Origin: a virus
Taxonomy: Duplodnaviria > Heunggongvirae > Uroviricota > Caudoviricetes
DNA: 64,000 bases
Virus record (IMG/VR): IMGVR_UViG_3300032665_000003
Direction: 5' to 3' (one strand)
A program made the translations under genes and the position numbers. Below, one piece after another: positions 546-20,840 of this stretch (the stretch's first letter is position 1; every line of letters begins with the position of its first letter). Under the pieces are notes generated by a model. The model saw nothing but the letters and a program-made list of their open reading frames with translations. It had not been told where the DNA came from and made no database searches.

Positions 546-620
546 GGAAGCAGTGATGGGACTCGCACCCACGATAGACAGAATATGAATCTGTTGCATT
601 GGCTACTATGCTACACTGCT
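546..620 (-). tRNA. tRNA with anticodon CAT (Met or lysidine-modified Ile2)
   Basis: Reverse complement folds with acceptor AGCAGTG/CACTGCT, anticodon stem ACAGA/TCTGT, loop TTCATAT, a T-arm with a TGCGAGT loop, and an encoded CCA. Confidence 0.55.
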
Positions 621-629
621 ATAATTTAA

Positions 630-716
630 TGGAGGACGTAGTAGGATTCGAACCTACGATGCGCTAAGCGTCCGGATTAAGAGCCAGGTGTATTCGACCA
701 CTATACTAATACGTCC
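630..716 (-). tRNA. tRNA with a long type-II-like variable arm; best fold gives anticodon loop CTCTTAA (CTT), so its identity is ambiguous
   Basis: Acceptor GGACGTA/TACGTCC, T-arm GTAGG-TTCGAAT-CCTAC, encoded CCA, a variable region of about 14 nt with a CGC-TTA-GCG hairpin, and one mismatch in the anticodon stem. Confidence 0.45.
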
Positions 717-1052
717 AAATTATATTTTTATATTATATCGATAGATGACCAATGTCAACTACCTAACGGTTAATTATCGAATAAGTGTCTTAATAAAAGT
801 AGCAATCAGATACCCGAAGTCAACTAATTAATCGAAAAAATTACCTTCGACCCAATTCCATTGGGAATCCGAAATCTTCTGCCAAACCCCAGAACCAAGC
901 GGAAAATGACGATTAGCCATCAACATCGCTTCGTTGTGCGTATTCGCATTAAAGACCTTAGAGTTACCAAAGGCCCGAAAAACAAAACTATTCATGGTTT
1001 GTTCCGTTTGCTGAATCTCTATGATTCATATTAGCAAATCAGAGACGTGATG

Positions 1053-1370
1053 TCAACCGATATTAGCCATTTTCTTTTGTGTGAGTTTTCGGTGTTCTTC
1101 TTCGGTCATGTTTTGGTCGTTTAGATACCAATACCGAGCTCCGTTCGCATATTCACACGCAGGACCATCTTCTCGATGACGTTGTCCGTTAAGATACCAA
1201 TGCCGATCGCCGTTCGCATATTCAATAGCAGGGCCGTCTTCTCGGTGACGTTGCCCGTTAAGATACCAATGCCGATCGCCGTATGCGCCCAAATCAATAG
1301 TATACCCCTTAAGAATATACCACATCATTTGTTCGTCAGATATAGGCGGTAGCATATGGATCGGTCCCAA
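1053..1370 (-). CDS. MORN-repeat protein (repeats YxNGxxHREDGPAxEY)
   Basis: Three tandem repeats of WYLNGQRHREDGPAIEYANGDRH. The N-terminus MLPPISDEQMMW is shared with the ORFs at 9514..10120. Confidence 0.55.
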   Translation of the reverse strand: MGPIHMLPPISDEQMMWYILKGYTIDLGAYGDRHWYLNGQRHREDGPAIEYANGDRHWYLNGQRHREDGPACEYANGARYWYLNDQNMTEEEHRKLTQKKMANIG

Positions 1371-1412
1371 TTTCTATATCTATAACGTAGAGATATAGGA
1401 ACCATAAGTCAA

Positions 1413-1637
1413 CTAGTTTATCATGCAAGCCTTGAGCATTTCCTCAGAGAAGCCCGTAGCCAGAATCATTTCCTTCAGCATCTTACTCTTACGGGTCGCA
1501 TGCTCTACAATTTCAGGGTCAGACATGGTTCCGCATGAGAGATCGGCAAATCCAAAAAGCTCTATGGCAAGGGCTTCCATAGGGAATTCCATACGGTCGC
1601 GATACTGTTCAGTGTCCTTAGACATCTCTATCTCCAT
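1413..1637 (-). CDS. hypothetical small protein (74 aa) driven by repeated promoter cassette copy 1
   Basis: ORF track, with the canonical promoter and RBS GGAAATGGAG immediately upstream. Confidence 0.4.
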   Translation of the reverse strand: MEIEMSKDTEQYRDRMEFPMEALAIELFGFADLSCGTMSDPEIVEHATRKSKMLKEMILATGFSEEMLKACMIN

Positions 1638-1649
1638 TTCCTATAATTA

Positions 1650-1678
1650 AATATAGTCTTTTGCTGAAAATAAGTCAA
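1650..1678 (-). promoter_or_regulatory. sigma70-like early promoter TTGACT-N17-TATATT (copy 1 of 3)
   Basis: Minus-strand reading GTTGACTTATTTTCAGCAAAAGACTATATTTAATTATAGGAAATGGAG, followed by ATG. Confidence 0.5.
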
Positions 1679-1684
1679 CGGGGT

Positions 1685-1864
1685 TTAGCGTTCTTCAAGC
1701 TTAATGCCATATGTACGACAGTCCTTGATAGCAGCCGTTTTAGTAGGATATCGGCCGAAGGGCGAACAATTTTCCTTCCAAACGACCCAGCGAGGAGTGC
1801 CCCAGTTGTTTTCCTTACTTACAAAATAGGTCTTATAGGTTTTACGCGCCATCTTGATCTCCAT
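1685..1864 (-). CDS. hypothetical 59-aa protein, below the ORF-track length cutoff, behind promoter copy 2
   Basis: Manual translation MEIKMARKTYKTYFVSKENNWGTPRWVVWKENCSPFGRYPTKTAAIKDCRTYGIKLEER. It has the same leader as its neighbours. Confidence 0.35.
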   Translation of the reverse strand: MEIKMARKTYKTYFVSKENNWGTPRWVVWKENCSPFGRYPTKTAAIKDCRTYGIKLEER

Positions 1865-1876
1865 TTCCTATAATTA

Positions 1877-1905
1877 AATATAGTCTTTTACTGAAAAGAA
1901 GTCAA
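1877..1905 (-). promoter_or_regulatory. sigma70-like early promoter TTGACT-N17-TATATT (copy 2 of 3)
   Basis: Near-identical 50-nt cassette: CTCCATTTCCTATAATTAAATATAGTCTTTT[A/G]CTGAAAA[G/T]AAGTCAAC. Confidence 0.5.
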
Positions 1906-1912
1906 CTGGTTT

Positions 1913-2182
1913 TTAAAACCACATAGTACGTTCGATATACTCTGTCTGGCCAGCATCAACCAGCTTGTAGGTTTGAAACGAAGCCTTGGTCAAGTTGCAG
2001 TCTTCGAGACACTTTTCAGCGGACGCCGGCTCATCAAAAGACCAAATCAAAGACCAGTTATTATCAGGGTCGATACCGCGGAGCCGGTACTCCGCCTTAT
2101 GCGCAGCAGGAAGTTCTTCGTGACGGATAATACGGTAACGTCCAACTCGTTCTTGATACGTCTCAGGCATTTCGCTCTCCAT
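1913..2182 (-). CDS. hypothetical protein (89 aa) behind promoter copy 3
   Basis: ORF track plus the same promoter/RBS leader. Confidence 0.4.
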   Translation of the reverse strand: MESEMPETYQERVGRYRIIRHEELPAAHKAEYRLRGIDPDNNWSLIWSFDEPASAEKCLEDCNLTKASFQTYKLVDAGQTEYIERTMWF

Positions 2183-2194
2183 TTCCTATAATTA

Positions 2195-2223: not shown

Positions 2224-2232
2224 CTAAAAATC

Positions 2233-3663: not shown

Positions 3664-4524
3664 ATGGATTGGGTAAAATACGGGTTTGGACCAGACTATC
3701 TACCACATGACCCAAAGCTACCGTTTTATATTAACTACAACAATGCTATTCCAACTACTGACAAAACACCATTAGAAATATCTAAAGAGGCCATTGAACG
3801 TATATCTAGTAAGTACCCTGCACCTTATACCTTGATGTGCAGCGGCGGTGTAGATAGTCAAGCGATGATTTTAGCCTGGAAGCACAGCGGTGTACCTTTC
3901 AGAATCGTTTCAGCTAGATACAATGACAATATGAATGATTATGATTTAGTTGAGTTAAATGCATTAGCAGAACGTGAGGGGCTTTCGGTCGACTACCTAG
4001 ACATCGATGTTATTGATTTTCATGAAAATCATTTACAAGAATGGGCTAAGACTTATAACTGCACCACACCACACATTCTCACACACATGTATATTGCAAG
4101 CAAGATTACCGAAGGTACTGTCGTGTCTAGCGGAAATTATGTTTTATCTATCGGAAAATTCGGAGCGATCAATTATGGACAATTTGGGTTGCAGAGATAT
4201 TCTGAGATTTCCAAACAACCGATGGTTCCTTATTTTTGGATGCACGACCAATATCTGATGCCGGTTTTTGAGATTATACGTCGGCAGCAAGGAATTGAAT
4301 ATGAACAATTAGAGAAAGACGGATATCACTATAAATGTCTATTATTTCAATTGGCCGGGTTTGACGTTATACCGCAACCTCGTAAATATAATGGATTCGA
4401 AAAACTAAAAGAACATTACGATTCGGTTACGCTTAAATATACTGATATCCTAAAGGCTGCTAAAAACCGAAAAGACAGCAGAGATGCTCTTGTCTGCTAT
4501 AATATCTTCCTTAACTTCAGTTAA
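3664..4524 (+). CDS. PP-loop (SGGxDS) ATP-pyrophosphatase superfamily protein; function unknown (QueC-, MnmA- or TilS-like fold)
   Basis: Motif LMCSGGVDSQAMI. Divergent paralogue of the 4600..5580 protein. Confidence 0.5.
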   Translation: MDWVKYGFGPDYLPHDPKLPFYINYNNAIPTTDKTPLEISKEAIERISSKYPAPYTLMCSGGVDSQAMILAWKHSGVPFRIVSARYNDNMNDYDLVELNALAEREGLSVDYLDIDVIDFHENHLQEWAKTYNCTTPHILTHMYIASKITEGTVVSSGNYVLSIGKFGAINYGQFGLQRYSEISKQPMVPYFWMHDQYLMPVFEIIRRQQGIEYEQLEKDGYHYKCLLFQLAGFDVIPQPRKYNGFEKLKEHYDSVTLKYTDILKAAKNRKDSRDALVCYNIFLNFS

Positions 4525-4599: not shown

Positions 4600-5580
4600 C
4601 TACAAAGTTTTGCGGCGAAGTAACCCGATTAGATTTGTCATACCATAATTATCATTTGAGCCAGGCCCTATCTCTAAAAGGTTTCCTATGGACATATTCC
4701 AGTTAATAATACTTTTTGTGTGTTTGGAGTTAGTCACACGAGAATTTATAACGGGCTGTATAGTATCTAACCATAAATTGGATCTCTTTACGAATTCCCA
4801 GCCGTCGCTTCTATGCCTGGCTTCCAGTTTACCAAAACCTAAATTTTCTAATAACTGTAGCTTGAATTGACCTATGGCCAGGTAATCCCCGTTAATAGAA
4901 TGTTTCTTGCGCAGGCTCAGGTGTTCCTTAATAAAGAACATGTTAGATTCCAAACTGTGACTTATCATGTTGCCTATACCAGGGATGCTTTGTTCTCTCA
5001 TGAACACATCAAACATCGCAAATTCATACCGGTGTGGACTATATACCTTTTCCTGTGGCCAAGTGTAATCTCCGCCTATGATAGGAAATGAATGGCATTG
5101 CTCAACTAACCACATTTGAGTAGGAGTGTTTGGTTCTAACAAATTATATGGTTCCATATACTTTGTATGATCACCATTACCAAAGAAACTGTCAAGGTTT
5201 AAATCAAAATGATATTGCTTGACTCCATGATTTCTGCAAAATTTTTCAGAGTAGTATAGATCATGGACGTTTATAGGGTTTCCCCTAAACAACAAGCGCA
5301 TTGATACTGCAACAACTGGAATATTGTTTTGCAAACATCCTACGATAGCGCTCTCGCTATCTAATCCGCCGCTATACAAAACTTCAACTGGAAGAAGTGC
5401 CGATTTCAAATGCTCAGTGTATGCTTCCTGCACAGTATTGTACGTTACAGTTTCAACGTCACGAAGTTCCATAGTGAATGTGTTGGTAGGGCCTTCGTCT
5501 AATGTTAACTTTCGATAATCATTGTGCCCAGTGTACCAAACCTTAGTCACCGAACTTATAACCCCTCGCGTCAACATCAC
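4600..5580 (-). CDS. PP-loop (SGGxDS) ATP-pyrophosphatase superfamily protein, paralogue of 3664..4524
   Basis: Motif VLYSGGLDSESAIVGC. The two genes are convergent. Confidence 0.5.
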   Translation of the reverse strand: MMLTRGVISSVTKVWYTGHNDYRKLTLDEGPTNTFTMELRDVETVTYNTVQEAYTEHLKSALLPVEVLYSGGLDSESAIVGCLQNNIPVVAVSMRLLFRGNPINVHDLYYSEKFCRNHGVKQYHFDLNLDSFFGNGDHTKYMEPYNLLEPNTPTQMWLVEQCHSFPIIGGDYTWPQEKVYSPHRYEFAMFDVFMREQSIPGIGNMISHSLESNMFFIKEHLSLRKKHSINGDYLAIGQFKLQLLENLGFGKLEARHRSDGWEFVKRSNLWLDTIQPVINSRVTNSKHTKSIINWNMSIGNLLEIGPGSNDNYGMTNLIGLLRRKTL

Positions 5581-5827: not shown

Positions 5828-5929
5828 GTAAACCCTTTGATAGTGTCAATTATACAACACTTATATATTCAACACAATCAATTTGGGTGACTTTGGTGAA
5901 CCCTCTGGGACTCGAACTCATCTAGTTTA

Positions 5930-5957
5930 CTAGACAGTCTGCTAGCAGACTGTCTAG
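5930..5957. repeat. 28-nt perfect palindrome CTAGACAGTCTGCTAGCAGACTGTCTAG inside the tRNA cluster
   Basis: Direct reading. It sits next to a T-loop-like sequence (GAGTTCGAGTCC, ...TTCACCA on the minus strand) that does not fold into a canonical tRNA. Confidence 0.6.
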
Positions 5958-5967
5958 TAATAAAATT

Positions 5968-6042
5968 TGGAGGATCCTCTCGGGATCGAACCGAGGACCA
6001 GCGGGTTAAAGGCCCGCTGCTCTACCGCTGAGCTAAGGATCC
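5968..6042 (-). tRNA. tRNA-Lys (TTT)
   Basis: GGATCCT/AGGATCC acceptor, GCTC..GAGC D-stem, anticodon arm GCGGG-CCTTTAA-CCCGC, T-arm CTCGG-TTCGATC-CCGAG, CCA encoded. Confidence 0.8.
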
Positions 6043-6102: not shown

Positions 6103-6194
6103 TGGCGGAGAGACAGGGATTCGAACCCTGGGTACCTATTTCTAGGTACGATGGTTTAGCAAACCACTCCCTTCGGCCTCTCGGGCACCTCTCC
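6103..6194 (-). tRNA. tRNA-Ser (GCT), type II
   Basis: Anticodon arm GTGGT-TTGCTAA-ACCAT, long variable hairpin CGTACCTAGAAATAGGTAC, T-arm with GTTCGAATCC, CCA encoded. Confidence 0.75.
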
Positions 6195-6204: not shown

Positions 6205-6588
6205 TTATATACCTAAATGCTTCTTCGCATTTTCAATGTAACCGATGATTCTGTCTTTACCAGCCGGATTCATAGAATGTACTATGTACTTTGGAAATTT
6301 CTTTCCGTGATCCGTGCAGTAATCGACCAACCATTTGGCACAATCGTATCCGGTCTTTTCATCACCGTAGGCCGCGTCATGACCTTCAGATTCAGCCAAC
6401 ATAGCAGCATAGTGTTCATCTGCAAGGTCGTGATCAAAACAGACAAATTCAGGAACGCCATGCAACGAAATATGCTTAATGAATTGATCATAGTTACGAA
6501 GAATGTAGGTCAATTCATCGCGAGGGAACGATTCCCAGGTAACTTGATCTGGCATTCGAACATCATCTAGAAACAGTAGGTATGACAT
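6205..6588 (-). CDS. hypothetical protein (127 aa)
   Basis: ORF track. Confidence 0.4.
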   Translation of the reverse strand: MSYLLFLDDVRMPDQVTWESFPRDELTYILRNYDQFIKHISLHGVPEFVCFDHDLADEHYAAMLAESEGHDAAYGDEKTGYDCAKWLVDYCTDHGKKFPKYIVHSMNPAGKDRIIGYIENAKKHLGI

Positions 6589-8459: not shown

Positions 8460-8552
8460 TTGGCGGAAGCGGTGAGATTCGAACTCACGGAACGCTCATC
8501 ACGTTCGTCCGCTTTCAAGGCGGATGCCATAAACCAGACTCGACCACACTTC
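8460..8552 (-). tRNA. tRNA-Ser (TGA), type II
   Basis: Anticodon arm TCCGC-CTTGAAA-GCGGA, long variable arm, T-arm GTGAG-TTCGAAT-CTCAC, CCA encoded. Confidence 0.75.
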
Positions 8553-8559
8553 CGTATAA

Positions 8560-8752: not shown

Positions 8753-8826
8753 TGGCACTGCCGGTAAGAATCGAACGTACGTGACTTGATCCACAATCAA
8801 GCGTTCTACCATTGAACTACGTCAGC
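8753..8826 (-). tRNA. tRNA-His (GTG), with acceptor-stem mismatches
   Basis: Anticodon arm CTTGA-TTGTGGA-TCAAG, D-arm GTTC-AATGGTA-GAAC, TTCGATT T-loop, CCA encoded. Confidence 0.6.
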
Positions 8827-8833
8827 ATGAATT

Positions 8834-8917
8834 GGTGCCTCATCTAGGTAACGATCCTAGCCAGTCAAAGACACCGGATTTACAGTCCGGACCCCGTCCT
8901 TAGAGGTATACTGAGGC
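8834..8917 (-). tRNA. tRNA-Tyr (GTA), type II
   Basis: Anticodon arm CCGGA-CTGTAAA-TCCGG, variable arm, T-arm CTAGG-ATCGTTA-CCTAG, CCA encoded. Confidence 0.7.
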
Positions 8918-9200: not shown

Positions 9201-9285
9201 TGGTAGCCGCGGTCGGAGTCGAACCGACATGCCCAAAGCGAGGGATTTTAAGTCCCTTGTGTCTTACCAGTTTCACCACGCGGCC
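9201..9285 (-). tRNA. tRNA-Leu (TAA), type II
   Basis: Acceptor GGCCGCG/CGCGGCT, anticodon arm AGGGA-CTTAAAA-TCCCT, variable arm, T-arm GTCGG-TTCGACT-CCGAC, CCA encoded. Confidence 0.75.
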
Positions 9286-9513: not shown

Positions 9514-9855
9514 TCAACCGGCTATTTTAATTTCTTTGTAAACTTCCCTACCGTTAACATACCAATGTTTAGTTCCATCTGCACATTCAATCGCAGGGCC
9601 GTCTTCTCGGTGACGTTGTCCGTTAAAATACCATTCTTTGTCACCGTTAGCACGTTCCAACGCAGGGCCGTCTTCTCGGTGAAGTTCTCCGTAGCGATAC
9701 CAACATACGCTGTTAATACCAATTACTGCAGGGCCGGCTTCTCGGTGTAGGGTTCTATTCAAAAACCACATACGAGTTCCGCTACTATACGTAACGACTC
9801 TATAACCCTTTAGAGTATCCCACATCATTTGTTCATCAGATATCGGCGGTAGCAT
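9514..9855 (-). CDS. MORN-repeat protein
   Basis: HREDGPA repeats; shares the N-terminus MLPPISDEQMMW with 1053..1370. Confidence 0.5.
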   Translation of the reverse strand: MLPPISDEQMMWDTLKGYRVVTYSSGTRMWFLNRTLHREAGPAVIGINSVCWYRYGELHREDGPALERANGDKEWYFNGQRHREDGPAIECADGTKHWYVNGREVYKEIKIAG

Positions 9856-10414: not shown

Positions 10415-10489
10415 TGGCACCAGTGGAGAGAATCGAACTCCCGCTTGGGGTTTTGGAGACCCTCGCACTACCACTATACTACACTGGTA
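10415..10489 (-). tRNA. tRNA-Trp (CCA)
   Basis: Acceptor ACCAGTG/CACTGGT, anticodon loop CTCCAAA, T-arm GGGAG-TTCGATT-CTCTC, CCA encoded. Confidence 0.75.
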
Positions 10490-10960: not shown

Positions 10961-11036
10961 TGGTAGGCCCTGACAGGATCGAACTGCCGACATTCTGCGT
11001 GTAAAGCAGACGCTCTCCCAGCTGAGCTAAGGGCCC
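10961..11036 (-). tRNA. tRNA-Val (TAC)
   Basis: Canonical cloverleaf GGGCCCT..AGGGCCT; anticodon arm TCTGC-TTTACAC-GCAGA. Confidence 0.8.
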
Positions 11037-11101: not shown

Positions 11102-11178
11102 TGGTCGGAGATGCAGGATTCGAACCTGCGACCCTCTGCTCCCAAAGCAGATGCGCTACCAGACTGCGCTAATCTCCG
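11102..11178 (-). tRNA. tRNA-Pro (TGG)
   Basis: Anticodon arm TCTGC-TTTGGGA-GCAGA, T-arm GCAGG-TTCGAAT-CCTGC, CCA encoded. Confidence 0.8.
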
Positions 11179-11260: not shown

Positions 11261-11336
11261 TGGTGGAGACAACAGGACTCGAACCCGCCACCTACTGGAT
11301 GCAAACCAGTCGCTCTACCAGATGAGCTATGTCCCC
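11261..11336 (-). tRNA. tRNA-Ala (TGC)
   Basis: Anticodon arm ACTGG-TTTGCAT-CCAGT; GGGGACA acceptor; CCA encoded. Confidence 0.8.
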
Positions 11337-11403: not shown

Positions 11404-11478
11404 TGGCGTCCCGAGAGAGAATCGAACTCCCATTCAGAGTTTAGAAGACTCTTGTCTTATCCATTAAACGACCGGGAC
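11404..11478 (-). tRNA. tRNA-Arg (TCT)
   Basis: Anticodon arm AGAGT-CTTCTAA-ACTCT; T-arm GGGAG-TTCGATT-CTCTC; CCA encoded. Confidence 0.8.
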
Positions 11479-11493
11479 ATATATTGTACACAA

Positions 11494-11537
11494 TGGCGCG
11501 AATAGGTTCAGGCTCTAATCCGCTGAGCTATGGAGCC
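11494..11537 (-). pseudogene. tRNA fragment: acceptor and D-arm (GGCTCCATAGCTCAGCGGATTAGAGCC) without an anticodon arm
   Basis: 44-nt tRNA-like 5' half ending ...CGCGCCA. Confidence 0.35.
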
Positions 11538-12037: not shown

Positions 12038-12550
12038 TTAGTAGCTTTTGCCTTCAGCATAACGTTGTCTTCTAGTGTGTCTACCGTTACCTTTATTTTT
12101 GGCCTTATAAGTAGGTGTTTGGCTATGACAATTGGGACATAGCAAACAAAGATTTTCTAATGCATTGTTATCACTATTACCGTCTTTATGTTCTAGTTCT
12201 AATGTTATAGGTTTAGAATTGTAATCACTGATTCCGCATTCTGTGCATTTATAACCAAATGTTTCTTTTAAGTATCGACGGATAGCACCTAACCCGGGTG
12301 CTTGGTTTTCATCTAACCACTGTTTAATTTTTAAAGAAAAAATGTGATCATTTTGACATTTATTATTACAATATTTGCCCTTACTAGAAATACTATTATT
12401 ACAGTAAACACATATATTTGTATAAATTATTTTTCTTTTAGCATTATTACAGGCAGCAGAACAAGACGAATTGCAAAACAATCTATGACGATGTTCATAT
12501 TTTAAAATCTGACTACAATGTATACACCGTTTAGGATCGATTGTATACAA
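12038..12550 (-). CDS. HNH homing endonuclease
   Basis: Motif ELEHKDGNSDNNALENLCLLCPNCH, with an N-terminal Cys-rich zinc finger. Confidence 0.7.
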   Translation of the reverse strand: MYTIDPKRCIHCSQILKYEHRHRLFCNSSCSAACNNAKRKIIYTNICVYCNNSISSKGKYCNNKCQNDHIFSLKIKQWLDENQAPGLGAIRRYLKETFGYKCTECGISDYNSKPITLELEHKDGNSDNNALENLCLLCPNCHSQTPTYKAKNKGNGRHTRRQRYAEGKSY

Positions 12551-12686: not shown

Positions 12687-12761
12687 TGGTGCCCCAAGAG
12701 GGAATTGAACCCCCTGCCTTCGACTTACAAGGTCGCTGCTCTACCGATGAGCTATAAGGGC
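12687..12761 (-). tRNA. tRNA-Thr (TGT)
   Basis: Anticodon loop CTTGTAA; GCCCTTA acceptor; GGGGG-TTCAATT-CCCTC T-arm; CCA encoded. Confidence 0.75.
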
Positions 12762-13377: not shown

Positions 13378-13454
13378 TGGCTCCCCAGGTTCGGCTCGAA
13401 CGAACGACATTCGGATTAACAGTCCGACGCAACTACCAACTGTGCTACTAGGGA
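13378..13454 (-). tRNA. tRNA-Asn (GTT)
   Basis: Anticodon arm TCGGA-CTGTTAA-TCCGA; T-arm GTTCG-TTCGAGC-CGAAC; CCA encoded. Confidence 0.75.
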
Positions 13455-13506: not shown

Positions 13507-14226
13507 ATGTTTCACATTATATACAAAACTACTAACACTGTCAACAACAAAATCTACGTGGGTTATCATTTTCAAGAAAGTGACCCCTTCGCATTTGATG
13601 GATATTTAGGTAGCGGTAAAGGTATCTTAAAGGCTATAAAGAAATACGGGCGATACAAATTTATACGAGAAACGCTACATGTGTTTACTACGGAACATGA
13701 TGCGTTGTCTAAGGAAACTGAAATAGTTAATGAATCATTTATAATGAGGTCCGATGTCTACAATTTAGTACCGGGAGGAGGCAAACCTCCGTCACATAAA
13801 GGAAAGAAAAAAACCGAAAACCACAAAAAGAAAATAGGATGTTCACAAAAAGGGAAAGTTATATCTATAGCGCAACGAGATAAAACTAGCACGACGCTAA
13901 CAGGGAGAAAAGTAGGACCACACTCTGTTGAGCGTAAGAAAAACATTGCTAACGCATTACTTGGTGTAAAACACACCGAAGAACGTAAACAGAAGATGAG
14001 CGATAATCACGCTGACATGTCTGGGGCTAAAAACCCTATGTTCGGTAAAATTGGACCTGCAAATCCAAACTTCGGTAGAAAAGATTCAAGTACAGCAAAA
14101 CTTCGAAAGAAGCAAGCCGCACTTGAATCTCAGGTTATTGTCGAGTGCCCGCATTGCAAAAAGATCGGTAAAAGATCAGGAATGCAAGTTTGGCATTTCG
14201 ACCGCTGTCGCAAATTAAAAATATAG
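13507..14226 (+). CDS. GIY-YIG homing endonuclease with NUMOD-like repeats and a C-terminal CPHC zinc motif
   Basis: N-terminus HIIYKTTNTVNNKIYVGYH (GIY-YIG), repeated xKKxxxHKK units, and a C-terminal CPHCKKIGKRSGMQVWHFDRC. Confidence 0.75.
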   Translation: MFHIIYKTTNTVNNKIYVGYHFQESDPFAFDGYLGSGKGILKAIKKYGRYKFIRETLHVFTTEHDALSKETEIVNESFIMRSDVYNLVPGGGKPPSHKGKKKTENHKKKIGCSQKGKVISIAQRDKTSTTLTGRKVGPHSVERKKNIANALLGVKHTEERKQKMSDNHADMSGAKNPMFGKIGPANPNFGRKDSSTAKLRKKQAALESQVIVECPHCKKIGKRSGMQVWHFDRCRKLKI

Positions 14227-14778
14227 TCTAATTCTACTGTGTTTTGGAATACCGGACATCAAGTAATCCATTTGGTCAGCAAGGATGCTGCGGTTTTGGA
14301 GAACCAAATGTTCATAATGTGACGGTTCGTACGGTACGTACAGCAACTCCATACCAGCCTGCTTCAACGTCTTACAACCCTTCTTTTGGTTACAAGGCTT
14401 ACAAGCAGTTACGACGTTCATCCATTCATCTTCGCCACCAAGAAACCGCGGCTTGATGTGATCACGACTCAAGAATTGATGACTCGTGTGATGATCACCG
14501 CAATAGGCGCAGACGCTACGGTCACGAGCGAACAAAGTCTTGTTCGTCAGAATAACATGCGTGTGCTTCTTGAAGTCGAAACCAGTGCCCTTAATGGCGA
14601 TGATACTCGGAGTTTCAAGATAGCTTTGGGTACCGTCATTTCTCGTGCCACCACGATAACGAGCAACTACCGAACCTAGCGACCAGGCCACAAGACCCTT
14701 CGCGTGATAAGAAATTGCATCGTCGTTAGATACCCAAGTTCGGGGAATACCCGAAACGTCCAAGGCTAGAATCGCCAT
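14215..14778 (-). CDS. HNH endonuclease (McrA-like)
   Basis: Motif CAYCG...LSRDHIKPRFLGGEDEWMNVVTACKPCNQKKG. Confidence 0.65.
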   Translation of the reverse strand: MAILALDVSGIPRTWVSNDDAISYHAKGLVAWSLGSVVARYRGGTRNDGTQSYLETPSIIAIKGTGFDFKKHTHVILTNKTLFARDRSVCAYCGDHHTSHQFLSRDHIKPRFLGGEDEWMNVVTACKPCNQKKGCKTLKQAGMELLYVPYEPSHYEHLVLQNRSILADQMDYLMSGIPKHSRIRLYF

Positions 14779-15157: not shown

Positions 15158-15232
15158 TGGTGCCTAGAACAGGATTGAACTGCCGGCCTTCGCTTTACGA
15201 AAGCGCTGCTATACCAATTCCGCCACCTAGGC
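15158..15232 (-). tRNA. tRNA with anticodon loop TTCGTAA (CGT, Thr-like); the anticodon stem is atypical
   Basis: Acceptor GCCTAGG, T-arm GGCAG-TTCAATC-CTGTT, CCA encoded. The anticodon arm GCGCT-TTCGTAA-AGCGA has a G.A closing pair. Confidence 0.6.
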
Positions 15233-15479: not shown

Positions 15480-16157
15480 TCAATAGTTGTGAATTAACGC
15501 ATTGAGCATAGATTTCTCTAGATTTCTACGACTCATCAGTTGTGGAATGATTTCATTTCTCAACCAATTTCTTTCATGGTGATTGTCTTGATTAGTGATA
15601 TCATCAATGAAGGGGATACCGCGCCGATTGCACTGTTCTAAAATAACAGACTTCGGAACCGTAAGAAATGGTTTGCATTTAAAAAATTCTAGGCTTTCGT
15701 CAAATCTAAACTTAGCAAGTCCAAGATTCGAATGAGCGGCGCCCCGCATCAGGTCCAAAAACACTTGTTCGATATTGTCATTGAGGTGGTGTGCAGTTAC
15801 CGCTACAACCTCTTTACCAAGAGTTTTTCTGTAGTTACGCACAAACTCCCAACGCTGACTGCGGGCCTCTGCTTCAAGGTTGGAAGAATCTTTGAGATCC
15901 TTTCCGTAACCAACGACAAAGTTACATTGAATCTGTTTATCCTGAATAAACTGCTGAATGAGTTCCTTGTCGAGATAATCGTTGTCTCGAATACCGTGCT
16001 GAAAATGACAGACAGTAAAACCGATGCCTGCATTATTGCAGAAATCTAGCATGAACATACTGTCGGGTCCTCCTGATACCATCAGCAGGATTTCTCTACG
16101 ATCTTGCGAATACAGATTCACTAATTCTTGTTGAATCTTTTTCCATGCAACTGACAT
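15480..16157 (-). CDS. tilS: tRNA(Ile)-lysidine synthetase (TilS) N-terminal PP-loop domain protein
   Basis: Motifs LLMVSGGPDSMFMLDF ... VCHFQHGIRDNDYLDKELIQQF match the TilS signature (SGGxDS ... HxNHxLR). Confidence 0.7.
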   Translation of the reverse strand: MSVAWKKIQQELVNLYSQDRREILLMVSGGPDSMFMLDFCNNAGIGFTVCHFQHGIRDNDYLDKELIQQFIQDKQIQCNFVVGYGKDLKDSSNLEAEARSQRWEFVRNYRKTLGKEVVAVTAHHLNDNIEQVFLDLMRGAAHSNLGLAKFRFDESLEFFKCKPFLTVPKSVILEQCNRRGIPFIDDITNQDNHHERNWLRNEIIPQLMSRRNLEKSMLNALIHNY

Positions 16158-16177
16158 TTGAGTACCTCTTAGATGAT

Positions 16178-16253
16178 GGTGCCCGCACTAGGATTTGAAC
16201 CTAGGACCCCAGGTTTATGAGACCTGCGCTACTGACCACTGAGCTATACGGGC
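16178..16253 (-). tRNA. tRNA with anticodon CAT, probably tRNA-Ile2 (lysidine) given the adjacent tilS; otherwise elongator Met
   Basis: GCCCGTA/TGCGGGC acceptor; anticodon arm CAGGT-CTCATAA-ACCTG; T-arm CTAGG-TTCAAAT-CCTAG; CCA encoded. Lies 21 nt upstream of the tilS start on the same strand. Confidence 0.75.
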
Positions 16254-16493: not shown

Positions 16494-16931
16494 CTAACCC
16501 GCCTTTTTAGCTCTTTCTCGCATGGCGTTCGTATAGGAACTATATTCTTCCTCCGTCATTCTGCTGACGTACTCTAAATAAGCTTTTTTGGCCAGAAGAC
16601 TGCGTTCTTCTACTGTTGTTTTTTCTATCCTTGCCAGAGCGCCCTTAAGGGCGCTCTCTTTGGTAAACCCTCCCACTCCGCCCAATCTCATATTATAATT
16701 TGAATGTTCGTTAAAGTTTTCGGTTAGCTTTCGTTCTAAATCATATGCTTCCGTTCGGGTTTCGGATATTAAAAGAATTTCCTTTCGAAAATTTTCTTTT
16801 CCATATTTTGAAATTGCGTTTTTTATTGCAGTTCCGCTCCCGTAATACGAATCCATTGGCTTGTTGGTCTTATGAACTCCTATATAGGTTTTGCTGTTAA
16901 CCAAATTAGTAATTCTATAAACAGTATACAT
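16494..16931 (-). CDS. GIY-YIG homing endonuclease
   Basis: MYTVYRITNLVNSKTYIGVH ... YYGSG. Confidence 0.7.
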   Translation of the reverse strand: MYTVYRITNLVNSKTYIGVHKTNKPMDSYYGSGTAIKNAISKYGKENFRKEILLISETRTEAYDLERKLTENFNEHSNYNMRLGGVGGFTKESALKGALARIEKTTVEERSLLAKKAYLEYVSRMTEEEYSSYTNAMRERAKKAG

Positions 16932-16986
16932 GCGAAATTTTCTCCGAATGTATTTAACATGTCGCAACCTAAACACTTAGATTTTT

Positions 16987-17061
16987 TGGTGCCCCATGAC
17001 AGAATCGAACTGCCGACCTTCGCTTTACGAAAGCGCTGCTATACCTCTTAGCTAATAGGGC
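16987..17061 (-). tRNA. tRNA with anticodon loop TTCGTAA (CGT), paralogue of 15158..15232
   Basis: Identical anticodon arm and a different acceptor (GCCCTAT/ATGGGGC); T-arm GGCAG-TTCGATT-CTGTC; CCA encoded. Confidence 0.6.
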
Positions 17062-18077: not shown

Positions 18078-18161
18078 TGGTAGGGGCGGAGGGAGTCGAA
18101 CCCCCAATCCTTTCGGAAGCTGCTTTTGAGACAGCCGCGTAGACCATTCCGCCACGCCCCC
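18078..18161 (-). tRNA. tRNA-Leu (CAA), type II
   Basis: Anticodon arm GCTGT-CTCAAAA-GCAGC, variable arm TTCCGAAAGGAT, T-arm GGGGG-TTCGACT-CCCTC, CCA encoded. Confidence 0.7.
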
Positions 18162-18207: not shown

Positions 18208-18292
18208 TGGTGCGAGTAGAGGGAGTCGAACCCCCACGCCTTTCGGCGCTGGTACCTAAAACCAGTGCGTCTACCAATTCCGCCATACTCGC
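18208..18292 (-). tRNA. tRNA-Leu (TAG), type II
   Basis: Anticodon arm CTGGT-TTTAGGT-ACCAG, variable arm CGCCGAAAGGCGT, T-arm GGGGG-TTCGACT-CCCTC, CCA encoded. Confidence 0.75.
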
Positions 18293-18483: not shown

Positions 18484-18609
18484 ATAAATGGTGTTGCCCT
18501 TCGGTAATGATCCGAAACCTCGAGATTTTCGGTCTCGCGTGCAGACCATCTACACTAGAGCAACATGAATTCTGCGGACTTACGGTGTTCTTCACCCGCC
18601 GAGTTATTT

Positions 18610-18680
18610 TGGTGGAGACGGAGGGAATCGAACCCTCCCTGCTGAACTGCCAGCCCGGCGTTAAGCCCACTTACGTCCCC
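18610..18680 (-). ncRNA. non-canonical short tRNA-like gene (about 68 nt plus CCA); the anticodon region is unclear
   Basis: Acceptor GGGGACG/CGTCTCC, perfect T-arm GGAGGG-TTCGATT-CCCTCC, A discriminator, encoded CCA. The central region does not give a standard D/anticodon fold. Confidence 0.35.
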
Positions 18681-18755: not shown

Positions 18756-19139
18756 CTACATGAATAGCTTCAAGGCTTTCAAATCTTCACCGATCAAGTC
18801 TTCTCGAATAGGACCGAGTCCTAAACAAGTAACAGTCGGTTCGTTGAATACCGTGAACCCAGCGTCTTTAACTAACGAGACACCGCATACATTCTTGTAT
18901 GCCTCTTGAATCACTTCTAGTTCGGCTACCGTGTCAACAATAAGAGTGATCTTATACGCATGATCACTGTTCTTGTACTGGATTGCTTGAAGATTGCAGT
19001 CCGAAGAAACCTCAAGACTAACTGCATTCCAATAAGCATGAAGGTATGCGTGACCTGCCATAGAAGCAAGCTTTCCGCGATTACCTTTCATCTTGTCTAC
19101 GCTTTCTTTAGCGAAGATGCAGTACATTTTCAGTTTCAT
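18756..19139 (-). CDS. pth2: peptidyl-tRNA hydrolase, PTH2 family (start trimmed to MKLKM)
   Basis: N-terminal KMYCIFAKESVDKMKGNRGKLASMAGHAYLHAY resembles the PTH2 signature KMvlvvRtDLkMgKGKiAAQ.sHAa. Confidence 0.5.
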   Translation of the reverse strand: MKLKMYCIFAKESVDKMKGNRGKLASMAGHAYLHAYWNAVSLEVSSDCNLQAIQYKNSDHAYKITLIVDTVAELEVIQEAYKNVCGVSLVKDAGFTVFNEPTVTCLGLGPIREDLIGEDLKALKLFM

Positions 19140-19157
19140 ATTTCCTCGCTGGTATGT

Positions 19158-19231
19158 TGGATGAGGGGCCAGGACTCGCACCTGGATCTTCTGATTCAGA
19201 GTCAAATATCCTACTATTAGACGAACCCTCA
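19158..19231 (-). pseudogene. degenerate tRNA: good acceptor and T-arm (CCAGG-TGCGAGT-CCTGG), but the anticodon arm is replaced by an 11-nt palindrome TCTGAATCAGA
   Basis: Folded by hand. Confidence 0.35.
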
Positions 19232-19239
19232 ATTAAATT

Positions 19240-19331
19240 TGGCGGAGAGTGAGGGATTTGAACCCCCGGTACTTATTTCTAAGTACGTCGGTTTTCGAGA
19301 CCGCCACCTTCGGCCGCTCGGTCAACTCTCC
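19240..19331 (-). tRNA. tRNA-Ser (CGA), type II
   Basis: Anticodon loop CTCGAAA; long variable hairpin CGTACTTAGAAATAAGTACC; GGGGG-TTCAAAT-CCCTC T-arm; CCA encoded. Confidence 0.7.
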
Positions 19332-19340
19332 GTAGTTAAA

Positions 19341-19429
19341 TGGTCAGGGTAGCAGGATTCGAACCTGCGTGAACGATTCCGCCTCTCGTTTCCAAAACGA
19401 GCGCTCCGACCTGGCTGAGCTATACCCTG
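19341..19429 (-). tRNA. tRNA with anticodon TGG (Pro-like) but an unusually long variable region of about 16 nt
   Basis: Perfect acceptor CAGGGTA/TACCCTG; anticodon arm CTCGT-TTTGGAA-ACGAG; variable region AGGCGGAATCGTTCAC; T-arm GCAGG-TTCGAAT-CCTGC. Confidence 0.5.
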
Positions 19430-19583
19430 ATAATTTGGCCGTCAGGAAATTTTCTCTCCGGCAGTCACTAGTAAACTGCTACCGCTGCGGGACCTGACGA
19501 TAAACTGTCGCCCCTACTCTATCTTTCTCTCGATTACTTTCGGTGTTGGATACCAAACATACGTGATAGGGGCATAAACTTAT

Positions 19584-19671
19584 GGCGGAGCGTTAGAGAT
19601 TCGAACTCTATACCCGTAAGGTACCTTTCGCTTTCCAAGCGAAGACAGATCCTATCTGCTTACCCACTCCG
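19584..19671 (-). tRNA. tRNA-Ser (GGA), type II
   Basis: Anticodon arm TTCGC-TTGGAAA-GCGAA; long variable arm; T-arm TAGAG-TTCGAAT-CTCTA; CCA encoded. Confidence 0.65.
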
Positions 19672-19756
19672 TATTATGGTGGCCCTCAATCCTAATTATA
19701 TAATCACCTAAGTGAGTTGATAGTCGGGGCATAAACTTTGGTGTGCAATGCGCAAT

Positions 19757-19835
19757 TTGGTGGGTCTAATTGGAATCGAACCCACGTCTGCTGCTTTGGA
19801 GACAGCGGTACTACTATTGTACGAAGTGCGCATGA
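19757..19835 (-). pseudogene. tRNA-like sequence (anticodon arm GCTGT-CTCCAAA-GCAGC would give CCA/Trp); the acceptor stem does not pair
   Basis: Good D-arm (GTAC-AATAGTA-GTAC), anticodon arm and T-loop GGGTTCGATTCC, but 5'/3' acceptor complementarity is absent. Flanked by more tRNA-like debris at 19680-19940. Confidence 0.25.
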
Positions 19836-19953
19836 TAAAGTCGTATTGGCTAGCGGAATCAAACCGCTTTTGGGGCACCCAAGTCCTATAGAGACGATTC
19901 GAACGTCACACCCTTTCCCACCAAGGAAAACCACCTAGGACCAATACTATAAA

Positions 19954-20030
19954 TGGCGCAATCAGAGGGATTCGAACCCCCAACCCTCAGATTCGTAGTC
20001 TGATGCTCTCATCCGTTGAGCTATGACTGC
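19954..20030 (-). tRNA. tRNA-Arg (ACG)
   Basis: Anticodon arm TCAGA-CTACGAA-TCTGA; T-arm GGGGG-TTCGAAT-CCCTC; CCA encoded. Confidence 0.75.
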
Positions 20031-20050
20031 ATACTTTAATATGCTATATT

Positions 20051-20127
20051 TGGCGAATCCTGACAGATTTGAACTGCCGACCCTCGCGTCCGAAGCGCGA
20101 TGCTCTAGTCCGCTGAGCTAAGGATCC
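20051..20127 (-). tRNA. tRNA-Arg (TCG)
   Basis: Anticodon arm TCGCG-CTTCGGA-CGCGA; T-arm GGCAG-TTCAAAT-CTGTC; CCA encoded. Confidence 0.7.
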
Positions 20128-20133
20128 GTAATA

Positions 20134-20207
20134 TGGTGCCGACGAAGGGGATTGAACCCTTGACCTCAGTCTTACCAAGACTGCGCACTACCACTGTGCT
20201 ACGTCGG
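20134..20207 (-). tRNA. tRNA-Thr (GGT); its 5' end overlaps the last codons of the HNH gene
   Basis: Anticodon arm CAGTC-TTGGTAA-GACTG; T-arm AAGGG-TTCAATC-CCCTT; CCA encoded. Confidence 0.75.
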
Positions 20208-20696
20208 CTTATTTTTGTACCGGTGCGTTCGACCATTTCCCCTGTTTTTTCCTTTAAAGGAATCAGTTTGACTATGACAGTTTGGACAAAGCAACCTTAA
20301 ATTATCTATATGATTGTTATTAGGATTACCATCTGAATGATCACATTCTAGTGTGATTGGGAGATCGTTCCATTGCTCTAATTTACACCACTGACATTTG
20401 GCTCCATGCAACGCTATTAAAGTTCGGCGCGCCCATGCCGGAAAACCCATGCTATCAAATGCACCGGTTATCAACCAATTTTTAATTTTTTCAGCAGACT
20501 GGTATTCTGCTTGACATTTATTAGAACAAAACTTTTGCTTGACGCCACATTGTTTCTCGCATTTCAAACACGAAGGTATATTTGTTCGGGCTCTACCTCT
20601 ACTAATAGAGTATCTTCCGCCTTCCCGATGAACACTTTTATGTCCATTCAATTGACGGAACGTTTCAAACTCTTTACCGCAGTGACATACGTGCAT
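20199..20696 (-). CDS. HNH homing endonuclease
   Basis: CDHSDGNPNNNHIDNLRLLCPNCH, plus an N-terminal C2H2-like zinc finger (HVCHCGKEF). Confidence 0.7.
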   Translation of the reverse strand: MHVCHCGKEFETFRQLNGHKSVHREGGRYSISRGRARTNIPSCLKCEKQCGVKQKFCSNKCQAEYQSAEKIKNWLITGAFDSMGFPAWARRTLIALHGAKCQWCKLEQWNDLPITLECDHSDGNPNNNHIDNLRLLCPNCHSQTDSFKGKNRGNGRTHRYKNKPT

Positions 20697-20767
20697 AAGC
20701 TTTGTCCTAGCTCAGTTATTTATGCCTATTAATAGGTATGTTGTATGAGCTAACACGGCATATAATT

Positions 20768-20840
20768 TGGCTGTCCCCCAAGGACTCGAACCTCGATAAT
20801 CCGCACCAAAAACGGATGTCTTACCATTAGACGAAGGGAC
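20768..20840 (-). tRNA. tRNA-Gln (TTG); the anticodon stem/loop boundary is ambiguous (9-nt loop, or a 6-bp stem with a G.T pair)
   Basis: TGTCCCT acceptor; D-arm TCTA-ATGGTA-AGA; anticodon region ATCCGTTTTTGGTGCGGAT; T-loop TTCGAGT; CCA encoded. Confidence 0.6.

Follow-up and report, generated by a model that had tools for sequence, protein, structure and literature searches.

A one-strand tRNA island with homing endonucleases and tRNA-related enzymes in a jumbo myovirus

We analysed a 64,000-nucleotide stretch of a tailed-phage genome (IMG/VR record IMGVR_UViG_3300032665_000003; hereafter the window) and confirmed that approximately 23 kb of one strand forms a real island of more than 30 tRNA genes, interspersed with selfish homing endonuclease genes and a few genes for tRNA-related enzymes. 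The interpretation we favour, at a probability of about 0.82, is that this tRNA island of a jumbo myovirus supplements the tRNAs of the host, includes a cassette for decoding AUA codons, and harbours selfish endonucleases that target tRNA genes.

A one-strand array of tRNA genes

With default settings, ARAGORN detected 30 tRNA genes between positions 545 and 20841, every one on the minus strand and 29 with an encoded CCA at the 3' end (Table 1), in agreement with the original prediction of about 28 tRNA genes on one strand, almost all encoding CCA. The ARAGORN structures have the cloverleaf, 7-nt anticodon loop and 3' acceptor end expected of tRNAs. The Rfam tRNA covariance model RF00005 (gathering score 29 bits) accepted 26 tRNAs of this range in a scan of the whole window (38–72 bits, E-values down to 1e-13), as well as Phe(GAA) in local scans (46.3 bits), and so the rejection by covariance models that had been named beforehand as fatal to the prediction did not occur. 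The same model reported none of Tyr(GUA), Ser(GGA), the Ala-like element and the Ser-like pseudogene. Phage tRNA clusters are recognised from 15 densely packed genes upwards (PMC6409571), and here 30–33 tRNAs occupy 20.3 kb of the window with three more outside it. Given that all 30 lie on one strand, at a density of about 1.5 tRNAs per kb, a chance pattern is not possible.

The island comprises at least 27 credible tRNA genes (three of them past the left window edge), about six structurally atypical members and four remnants or pseudogenes, and an outlying tRNA-like gene lies beyond the array at 25.9 kb. Canonical members are Lys(UUU), Ser(GCU, UGA, CGA), His, Leu(UAA, CAA, UAG), Trp, Val(UAC), Pro(UGG), Ala(UGC), Arg(UCU, ACG, UCG), Thr(UGU, CGU, GGU), Asn, Gln(CUG, UUG) and two tRNAs with a CAT anticodon (CAU in the RNA). 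The anticodon classes listed originally were recovered accordingly (Lys, four Ser, His, three Leu, Trp, Val, Pro, Ala, three Arg, four Thr, Asn, two Gln and two CAT), with the exception that Tyr(GUA) was found only by ARAGORN at relaxed settings and not by Rfam. A list of missing tRNAs held in part: the island has, as listed, no gene for Glu, Asp, Cys or Ile(GAU), Phe was listed wrongly since a Phe(GAA) gene is present, and Gly is encoded about 2 kb past the window edge. There, on the same strand and 2.1–2.4 kb beyond window position 1, lie Gly(UCC), Gly(GCC) and a third CAT tRNA, which resembles a bacterial initiator tRNA (5' acceptor strand CGCGGGG, C1xA72 mismatch); the next 5 kb contain no tRNAs.

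Exact-protein look-ups placed the window on contigs of 273 kb and 305 kb, indicating a jumbo myovirus with a genome of approximately 273–305 kb, and found copies of the phage at least 99% identical in many samples. The Joint Genome Institute (JGI) metagenomes with matching contigs are freshwater lake samples, and the phage is uncultured. Virion and metabolic genes elsewhere in the window encode a 1220-amino-acid tail sheath, a tail tube, ribonucleotide reductase and large virion proteins. The tail sheath is 39–47% identical to those of the jumbo myoviruses PA5oct, Phosso, Atu_ph07 and Vibrio phage 2.275.O, with a value of 46% for PA5oct, Phosso and Atu_ph07, and the phage is a distant relative of these three. 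Megablast of the island against 50,697 phage records returned single-tRNA matches only and no nucleotide-level relative. The window uses the standard genetic code, with TAA (26), TAG (10) and TGA (7) as stops among 43 genes.

Table 1. Positions of tRNA genes, tRNA-like elements and selected protein genes in the window
Feature	Position	Strand	Support
tRNA(CAT), elongator type, probably Met; A1-U72, U73, CCA	545..620	-	ARAGORN; Rfam 59.3 bits
Atypical tRNA-Lys(CUU), long variable arm (class-II-like), U73, CCA	630..716	-	ARAGORN; Rfam 42.4 bits
Orphan PP-loop ATPase, SGGVDS	3664..4524	+	motif; family alignment with invariant SGGxDSQ
Second orphan PP-loop ATPase, SGGLDS	4600..5580	-	motif; distant paralog of 3664-4524, E 4e-06
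T-arm-like remnant behind 15-bp hairpin	5898..5967		sequence, fold
tRNA-Lys(UUU)	5968..6042	-	ARAGORN; Rfam 65.5 bits
tRNA-Ser(GCU), 79% identical to Ser(CGA)	6103..6194	-	ARAGORN; Rfam 48.1 bits
cREC_REC (cyclic-phosphate-processing receiver) domain protein	6205..6588	-	Pfam PF20274 6.9e-20; phrog_1479
tRNA-Ser(UGA)	8461..8553	-	ARAGORN; Rfam 49.5 bits
tRNA-His(GUG)	8753..8826	-	ARAGORN; Rfam 57.7 bits
Atypical tRNA-Tyr(GUA), class II	8833..8917	-	relaxed ARAGORN only; no Rfam
tRNA-Leu(UAA)	9201..9285	-	ARAGORN; Rfam 53.3 bits
tRNA-Trp(CCA)	10415..10488	-	ARAGORN; Rfam 58.6 bits
tRNA-Val(UAC)	10961..11036	-	ARAGORN; Rfam 62.2 bits
Canonical tRNA-Pro(UGG), G37	11102..11178	-	ARAGORN; Rfam 70.1 bits
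tRNA-Ala(UGC), G3-U70	11261..11336	-	ARAGORN; Rfam 62.5 bits
tRNA-Arg(UCU)	11404..11478	-	ARAGORN; Rfam 54.6 bits
tRNA remnant: 5' acceptor strand and D arm fused to ...CGCGCCA 3' end; anticodon and T arms deleted	11493..11537	-	repeat family D5, sequence
Free-standing HNH homing endonuclease	12038..12550	-	HNH motif read; Pfam HNH below cutoff; paralog of 20199-20696, E 1.5e-31
tRNA-Thr(UGU)	12687..12761	-	ARAGORN; Rfam 61.5 bits
tRNA-Asn(GUU)	13378..13454	-	ARAGORN; Rfam 54.9 bits
GIY-YIG-type homing endonuclease with NUMOD3	13507..14226	+	NUMOD3 5e-07; SegE_GIY-YIG weak, below cutoff
HNH_5 homing endonuclease	14215..14778	-	Pfam HNH_5 4.7e-15
Chimeric second tRNA-Thr(CGU)	15158..15232	-	Rfam 38.4 bits
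Minimal TilS, catalytic N-domain only, 225 amino acids, SGGPDS	15480..16157	-	Pfam ATP_bind_3 3.6e-34; TIGR02432
tRNA(CAT), candidate tRNA-Ile2	16177..16253	-	ARAGORN; Rfam 63.2 bits
GIY-YIG (Seg-like) homing endonuclease	16494..16976	-	SegE_GIY-YIG 1.2e-07, GIY-YIG 1.2e-05, above cutoffs
tRNA-Thr(CGU)	16987..17061	-	ARAGORN; Rfam 60.5 bits
tRNA-Leu(CAA)	18078..18161	-	ARAGORN; Rfam 54.4 bits
tRNA-Leu(UAG)	18208..18292	-	ARAGORN; Rfam 55.5 bits
Atypical tRNA-Phe(GAA), C33, T-loop AUCAUUA	18489..18564	-	ARAGORN; Rfam 46.3 bits, local scan
Reduced tRNA-Ala-like gene, 71 nt	18610..18680	-	ARAGORN; Rfam tmRNA (transfer-messenger RNA) local match below cutoff
PTH2-type peptidyl-tRNA hydrolase, 127 amino acids, start ATG 19139	18756..19139	-	Pfam PTH2 2.8e-14
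tRNA-Gln(CUG)	19158..19231	-	ARAGORN; Rfam 47.8 bits
tRNA-Ser(CGA)	19240..19331	-	ARAGORN; Rfam 47.3 bits
Variant tRNA-Pro(UGG), 10-nt hairpin insertion in variable region, A37	19341..19429	-	Rfam 60.5 bits
Atypical tRNA-Ser(GGA): one acceptor mismatch, odd D arm, G73-CCA	19583..19670	-	ARAGORN; no Rfam
tRNA-Trp-like pseudogene: good D, anticodon (CCA) and T arms; no acceptor pairing	19760..19835	-	Rfam partial 19769-19822, 30 bits
tRNA-Ser-like pseudogene: poor acceptor stem, without CCA	19843..19935	-	ARAGORN; no Rfam
tRNA-Arg(ACG)	19954..20030	-	ARAGORN; Rfam 66.7 bits
tRNA-Arg(UCG)	20051..20127	-	ARAGORN; Rfam 59.6 bits
tRNA-Thr(GGU), first 10 nt overlap end of HNH open reading frame	20134..20208	-	ARAGORN; Rfam 71.8 bits
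Free-standing HNH homing endonuclease	20199..20696	-	HNH motif read; Pfam HNH_3 weak, below cutoff
tRNA-Gln(UUG)	20768..20841	-	ARAGORN; Rfam 50.7 bits
CUA-anticodon tRNA-like gene	25923..25997	-	Rfam 34.6 bits

tRNA-related enzymes and homing endonucleases within the array

Both a TilS and a PTH2 had been predicted for the island, which does carry translation-related enzymes as proposed (TilS, PTH2 and a cREC_REC protein were all detected). The minimal tilS gene begins 20 nt downstream of the tRNA(CAT) gene at 16177–16253, and a sigma-70-like site with a near-consensus TTGACA-16-TATGAT arrangement precedes the pair (16297–16270). The protein exceeded the curated cutoff of the NCBIfam model lysidine_TilS_N (TIGR02432; 127.7 against 93.6 bits), and its best matches in the PDB are TilS structures (1wy5, 1ni5 and 3a2k), in the N-domain only. 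It has no C-terminal tRNA-binding domains: the matches end at about residue 225 of TilS structures of 317–464 amino acids, and the full-length TilS equivalog NF007942 scored 65 bits against a cutoff of 606. Its closest relatives (P0001–P0013) are equally short metagenomic proteins, several of them on phage-like contigs; an IMG/VR search with the back-translated TilS gave no matches. At two related loci (L010 and L011), with TilS 58% identical to that of the window and a different gene order, a CAT tRNA (53% identical) lies about 25 nt upstream of tilS, and at three others (L008, L009 and L020; TilS 41–44% identical) a CAT tRNA occurs within 2–6 kb of it. The position of tilS immediately downstream of tRNA(CAT), here and in L010 and L011, suggests that this tRNA is the TilS substrate. 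ATA makes up 24% of the Ile codons of the phage, and no other Ile tRNA was found in the island. The most economical reading of these genes is a self-contained AUA-decoding cassette of tRNA(CAU) and minimal TilS, with the tRNA as a candidate tRNA-Ile2 whose CAU anticodon would be modified to lysidine-AU and read AUA; the three CAT tRNAs would then be an initiator-like tRNA, an elongator tRNA-Met and tRNA-Ile2.

The PTH2-type protein passed the Pfam cutoff (PF01981; 53.7 bits, cutoff 23), and its homologs in Brevundimonas and Caulobacter phages, 40–54% identical, are annotated as peptidyl-tRNA hydrolase. Its start codon (ATG 19139) and ribosome-binding site are visible in the sequence, and with ATG 19139 as the true start the gene does not overlap tRNA-Gln. 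The protein originally likened to the C-terminal domain of a CCA-adding enzyme is real, although its identity is a different one, a cREC_REC domain (PF20274; 72 bits, cutoff 27), for which a role in 2',3'-cyclic-phosphate processing and RNA repair has been predicted (PMC7824862).

Five free-standing homing endonuclease genes, three HNH and two GIY-YIG, are located inside the array. Each of the five positions predicted for such genes was borne out; the predicted total of at least seven within 546–20840 proved too high and holds only over the whole window, four further candidates lying elsewhere in it (41092–41760, 42902–43837, 50820–51404, which is weak, and 62631–63140). The paralogous HNH proteins are 31–49% identical to annotated phage HNH endonucleases, and that of 20199–20696 has matches at 44–49%. 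The Seg-like GIY-YIG protein (16494–16976) is about 39% identical to annotated Seg-like homing endonucleases and related to the other GIY-YIG-type protein at E 6e-12, and a homolog of the HNH_5 gene also occurs at the related locus L010, despite its different gene order.

None of the five endonuclease genes is more than 380 nt away from a tRNA gene. The nearest tRNA is tRNA-Thr for four of the five, all four Thr genes have an endonuclease neighbour, and the fifth endonuclease gene abuts tRNA-Asn(GUU), at a distance of 52 nt and on the strand opposite to the tRNAs. The HNH gene at 12038–12550 is 136 nt downstream of tRNA-Thr(UGU) and the Seg-like gene 10 nt downstream of tRNA-Thr(CGU). The overlap noted originally between tRNA-Thr(GGU) and an HNH stop codon was also found, as the last three codons of 20199–20696 (CCG ACG TAG) lie inside the 5' acceptor strand of this tRNA; Streptomyces phage homologs of the same HNH gene are likewise found directly beside a tRNA gene or overlapping one. 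Shuffling of isotype labels gave P = 1.6e-4 for Thr and 9e-4 for any isotype. The pairing with tRNA-Thr was found post hoc and is therefore a lead rather than a result. To our knowledge, an association of homing endonucleases with tRNA-Thr genes has not been described.

From the genes, gene families and arrangement observed here we infer how the island would be expressed and used. The host polymerase probably transcribes the tRNA genes from several sigma-70-like promoters: 16 of the 19 best promoter-like sites are on the tRNA strand, several of them just upstream of tRNA clusters, and a 12/12 sigma-70-like site (13544–13516) lies upstream of tRNA-Asn(GUU). With CCA already present in the genes, trimming of the ends would be enough for the transcripts to mature. 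Once charged, the phage tRNAs would add to or replace host tRNAs during infection and favour the A/U-ending codons preferred by the phage, whose codon third positions are 67% A or T; under strict wobble rules, about 55% of phage codons are readable with the confident tRNAs and about 77% when the atypical and the two Gly tRNAs are added. The cassette would contribute a phage-made, lysidine-bearing tRNA-Ile2 for AUA, PTH2 would recycle dropped-off peptidyl-tRNA, and the cREC protein may process RNA ends with 2',3'-cyclic phosphate. The endonucleases are most likely selfish, cutting the tRNA-gene DNA of endonuclease-free relatives in mixed infections and being copied across by repair, with gene conversion, duplication and decay within the array as a side effect. 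The original interpretation of the island as a translation-takeover module is thus supported in part, 'takeover' itself being an inference.

Several observations weigh against parts of this interpretation. Promoter-like sites show no overall excess (50, against 52.9 in shuffled controls). For the cassette, sequence similarity did not single out the Ile2 among the CAT tRNAs: their alignment with E. coli Ile2, Met and fMet was indecisive, and blastn against phages returned tRNA-Lys genes at 77% identity for one and nothing for the other. Because the minimal TilS lacks the C-terminal domains that hold the acceptor stem in the solved enzymes, its choice of substrate is uncertain. Nor is the adjacency universal: no CAT tRNA lies within 6 kb of tilS in PA5oct (L019; TilS 27% identical), none occurs in the DNA covered at L006 and L007 (40% identical; 10 kb on each side at L006), and none is present on the 9.5-kb contig of L012 (43% identical). 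PTH2 falls below the cutoffs of both NCBIfam equivalogs (45.9 against 126 bits and 42.1 against 82). Finally, the copies of the phage that were recovered share at least 99% identity and do not differ in their endonuclease genes, and so the presence/absence polymorphism that is the signature of homing is not observable among them.

Atypical tRNAs and alternative readings of the island

The array holds two Pro(UGG) genes. The canonical one is 89–94% identical to tRNA-Pro of Rhizobium and Achromobacter phages, and the other has a long variable arm, perfect stems and the C1-G72 pair and A73 that are Pro determinants under E. coli identity rules. Two IMG/VR contigs, of 360 kb and 43 kb, carry class-I homologs of tRNA-Pro(UGG) whose acceptor and T arms are identical to those of the variant and whose variable loop has the normal 5 nt. 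Aligned with them, the variant differs at three points: a 10-nt insertion folds into a small hairpin, a G-C pair of the anticodon stem has become C-G in a compensatory change, and position 37 is A instead of G. Perfect stems and a compensatory stem change imply that the variant is under structural selection. On this comparison it is a tRNA-Pro derivative in which such selection is ongoing, rather than a tRNA-Ser or tRNA-Leu that has acquired another anticodon.

The atypical Lys(CUU) also has an extra arm; it shares the unusual U73 with Lys(UUU), and its unconstrained fold is a five-arm cloverleaf. Pattern searches of IMG/VR for this long-arm tRNA found no relatives. Class II tRNAs have Leu, Ser or Tyr identity, which sets the two long-arm genes apart, as they bear Lys and Pro anticodons with U73 and A73, respectively. 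Neither has the G73 used by SerRS, and thus there is no evidence of a changed amino-acid identity. The atypical Tyr(GUA) is intergenic, 6 nt from tRNA-His, with perfect anticodon and T stems, A73-CCA, the T-loop AUCGUUA and a weak D stem. The T-loops of Tyr(GUA) and Phe(GAA) both have A in first position and U at 58, the U54-A58 pair being apparently swapped.

Other members appear to be duplicates or fragments. The gene at 15158–15232, called Phe(AAA) by ARAGORN in what was a register artefact, is a second, chimeric copy of Thr(CGU). A 47-nt core within its anticodon and T arms is 94% identical to positions 16999–17045 of Thr(CGU) (83% overall), and its D arm resembles that of Leu(UAG). This chimeric duplicate and the fused remnants (Table 1) would fit break-induced gene conversion. 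The Ala-like element has G3-U70, ACCA, an acceptor nearly identical to that of Ala(UGC) and a possible GGC anticodon, which is also an Ala anticodon, and it is without a proper D arm. It resembles the tRNA-like domain of tmRNA, but its match to the tmRNA model RF00023 is confined to the acceptor and T-arm ends, skips 328 model positions and reaches 36.7 bits where the cutoff is 47; no tag reading frame was found for it, and ARAGORN at default settings reported no tmRNA, such that the element reads better as a reduced tRNA-Ala paralog than as a tmRNA. A 'Pyl(CTA)' called by ARAGORN at a relaxed threshold (5898–5967) was rejected, as it consists of a 15-bp hairpin and a T-arm-like remnant. The hairpin is perfect and directly adjoins tRNA-Lys(UUU) on its downstream side; another long hairpin, an imperfect one, comes next, and the region as a whole (5828–5967, minus strand) folds far better than shuffles (z = -6.5). 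It may act in termination or in RNA processing. Two long hairpins with no family match also form in the 150 nt that separate the variant Pro(UGG) from Ser(GGA) (19432–19581, minus strand), where folding is somewhat better than in shuffles (z = -2.2). Most non-coding gaps of the array fold no better than shuffles.

The canonical and remodelled Pro pair and the atypical Lys, Tyr and Phe genes fit a role in counter-defence without proving it. Phage tRNAs have been proposed to evade anticodon nucleases (PMC10264068); variants of T5 tRNAs overcome PARIS, a system whose targets for cleavage are tRNA-Lys(UUU), Thr(UGU) and Asn(GUU) (PMC11464382, PMC12409363); phage tRNA-Tyr and tRNA-Lys defeat retron-Eco7 and PrrC (PMC11555353); and SegB amplifies tRNA-Tyr against Septu, with segB enriched near tRNAs across 296 phage genomes (PMC13096335). 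It is possible, with the odds against it, that the island is a counter-defence armoury, in which the tRNAs are nuclease-insensitive substitutes for host tRNAs cleaved or depleted by PrrC, PARIS, retron PtuAB, Septu or Schlafen-like nucleases, the odd copies (long-arm Pro and Lys, altered T-loop Tyr and Phe, reduced Ala) are escape variants, the cREC protein serves RNA repair, and adjacent homing endonucleases allow rapid amplification or exchange of the tRNAs that matter. Such a role is compatible with codon supplementation. It is favoured by the redundancy of Pro(UGG), present once in canonical form and once as a variant under structural selection, by the presence of all the targets of PARIS, PrrC, retron-Eco7 and Septu (Lys, Thr(UGU), Asn(GUU) and Tyr), by the endonuclease gene adjoining each of Thr(UGU) and Asn(GUU), and by the cREC domain protein itself. 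However, decay of duplicates could account for the odd tRNAs just as well, the window yielded neither an RNA ligase nor a polynucleotide kinase/phosphatase, and the association of endonucleases with tRNA-Thr is post hoc. A stronger version, which we consider unlikely, is an evolving anti-immunity armoury whose remodelled Pro, Lys, Tyr and Phe and minimal Ala tRNAs are expressed, chargeable and cleavage-resistant, whose endonucleases, beside the four tRNA-Thr genes and tRNA-Asn, amplify, shuffle and spread them, and whose cassette frees AUA decoding from the host. In a bolder variant, the long-arm or CUA tRNAs would alter decoding through misincorporation, frameshifting or stop read-through.

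We also considered whether the endonucleases have no functional tie to the tRNAs and have merely landed in a gene-poor, non-essential island that is permissive to insertion. Endonuclease-like reading frames do turn up elsewhere in the window as well, some close to structural genes and others inside or next to the genes for ribonucleotide reductase, and the island carries 0.25 per kb, only about 2.7-fold the value for the remainder of the window (0.09 per kb). Against this stand the position of four of the five genes nearest to tRNA-Thr (label permutation P about 2e-4 for Thr), the overlap of one endonuclease gene with a tRNA and the similar placement of its Streptomyces phage homologs, and the published linkage of SegB to tRNAs and its cleavage within tRNA regions (PMC2330249, PMC13096335), which together make a mere landing zone doubtful. 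That the island is a captured bacterial tRNA array in decay, with many calls being non-functional relics, is very improbable: there are four clear remnants or pseudogenes (11493–11537, 19760–19835, 19843–19935 and 5898–5967) and several atypical members were missed by ARAGORN or Rfam, but 24 genes score 46–72 bits with intact stems, CCA is kept in 29 of 30, all genes point the same way, copies from many samples agree in at least 99% of the sequence, and matched accessory enzymes have been retained (tilS beside the CAT tRNA).

Neighbouring features and known systems

The CUA-anticodon tRNA-like gene lies 5 kb outside 546–20840 and is intergenic according to the JGI gene calls. It has an anticodon loop CUCUAAA, G73, an encoded CCA and several stem mismatches (Rfam alignment 25926–25997), and its anticodon arm resembles that of Arg(UCU). 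The anticodon is complementary to a stop codon, as in suppressor tRNAs; recoding of that stop was rejected, as TAG ends 10 of the 43 genes and TAG read-through yields no special gain in open reading frames. One gene (54009–54632, minus strand) has a TAG stop that is followed one codon later, in frame, by the ATG of an 837-amino-acid gene (51492–54005), and CUA read-through would fuse the two; in-frame neighbouring gene pairs with TAG are no commoner than chance predicts.

Two further PP-loop ATPases had been assigned to the tRNA module. The PP-loop fold stood up and the tie to tRNA did not: a tRNA role found no support in profile searches against the PDB, in Pfam or NCBIfam, in the fold or in gene context, and membership of the tRNA module is doubtful for both. 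Neither protein matches a Pfam or NCBIfam family above cutoff or has a PDB match by profile, and both belong to families of about 300 amino acids known from metagenomes. An AlphaFold2 model of the protein at 3664–4524 (pLDDT, the predicted local distance difference test, 93.5) has a generic PP-loop fold, with the best TM-scores to beta-lactam synthetase and asparagine synthetase B (AsnB); Foldseek matches were LarE, NAD/NMN synthetase, AsnB, beta-lactam synthetase, TtuA and TilS. Relatives have an S8 peptidase next door or, for relatives of 4600–5580, are fused to Peptidase_S8, which suggests a partnership of PP-loop protein and protease; only one of two distant homolog loci lies near tRNAs. 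In the window, a gene for a 463-amino-acid protein with an HExxH motif (2233–3624) adjoins the two divergently transcribed PP-loop genes.

Approximately 1.5–2 kb past window position 1, on the tRNA strand, there is a non-coding stretch of about 450 nt that is rich in GNRA-type hairpins (L013 15130–15580, plus strand). Three near-consensus sigma-70-like promoters precede it, and the initiator-like tRNA follows shortly downstream. Its folding surpasses that of 100 of 100 shuffles (z = -2.8), and it is a candidate new structured RNA; Rfam assigned it to no family, the only match being GOLLD at 16 bits against a cutoff of 150, which does not indicate membership.

Three small paralogous proteins with MORN-like 'W(Y/F)xNGxxHREDGPA' repeats are encoded inside the island (1053–1370, 9514–9855 and 9836–10120, minus strand), the second of which is absent from the JGI gene calls. 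Auxiliary metabolic genes beside the island, also on the minus strand, encode an S-adenosylmethionine-decarboxylase-like protein (10493–10933), a RimK-family alpha-L-glutamate ligase (23559–24494) and a redoxin (24984–25571); the RimK family includes the modifier of ribosomal protein S6. Farther away, the large subunit of ribonucleotide reductase is in pieces (41817–45526, minus strand), with an N-part (43871–45526), a homing endonuclease (phrog_655; 42902–43837) and a C-part (41817–42905). The N-part and the endonuclease frame are in the same reading frame with one TGA between them, and a weak-HNH reading frame (41092–41760) sits between nrd genes.

Large tRNA islands, tRNA-region endonucleases, phage tilS and phage PTH2 are already known from big phages. 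Phage tRNA clusters of 15–37 genes have been described (PMC6409571), and XacN1 has 56 tRNAs (PMC5852040). The island resembles the clusters of T5, T4, phiCbK-like Caulobacter phages, XacN1, Atu_ph07 and PA5oct/MIJ3 in its dozens of co-oriented tRNAs, grouped in a single region of a large lytic phage's genome with small reading frames interspersed, and shares with large-phage clusters the coverage of most amino acids and the bias toward phage codons (PMC6409571, PMC5852040); it differs in its unusually high share of atypical or decayed members (about 10 of 37). The GIY-YIG (Seg-like) and HNH genes between tRNA genes recall SegB of T4 and T6, and homing of T4 SegB within the tRNA cluster has been reported (PMC2330249), the published role of tRNA-region endonucleases being preferential inheritance and segmental amplification of the tRNA region (PMC2330249, PMC13096335). 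In contrast to T4/T6 SegB, five endonuclease genes of three families are present here.

A tilS gene with published function 'unknown' is present in PA5oct and MIJ3, and the minimal TilS of the window resembles it as a short PP-loop homolog of the TilS catalytic domain in a jumbo myovirus (PMC6892783); the two proteins are only 27% identical, and the adjacent CAT tRNA is a feature of this island and of L010 and L011, not of PA5oct. The long-arm tRNAs with Pro and Lys anticodons, unexpected for class II, are similar to the nev-tRNAs of nematodes, which combine a long variable arm with non-Leu/Ser/Tyr anticodons (PMC3333845). Unlike nev-tRNAs, the phage Pro(UGG) variant demonstrably derives from a class-I tRNA-Pro by a 10-nt insertion, with the Pro-type C1-G72 and A73 kept. 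The CUA tRNA-like gene shares its anticodon and encoded CCA with the suppressor tRNAs of stop-codon-recoded phages, whereas here TAG is an ordinary stop and the gene has stem mismatches and a score of only 34.6 bits. Modestly new, in comparison, are the conserved cassette of tRNA(CAU) and minimal TilS, the conversion of a class-I into a long-arm tRNA-Pro, the pairing of endonucleases with tRNA-Thr, and a CUA tRNA-like gene in a standard-code genome.

None of these features overturns a current idea. The tRNA islands of large phages are currently being reinterpreted as weapons against tRNA-cutting immunity, with homing endonucleases as their amplifiers, and the present island is a well-resolved example, in which a tRNA-Pro has been caught gaining an extra arm and the tRNA(CAU) cassette gives phage TilS a plausible substrate.

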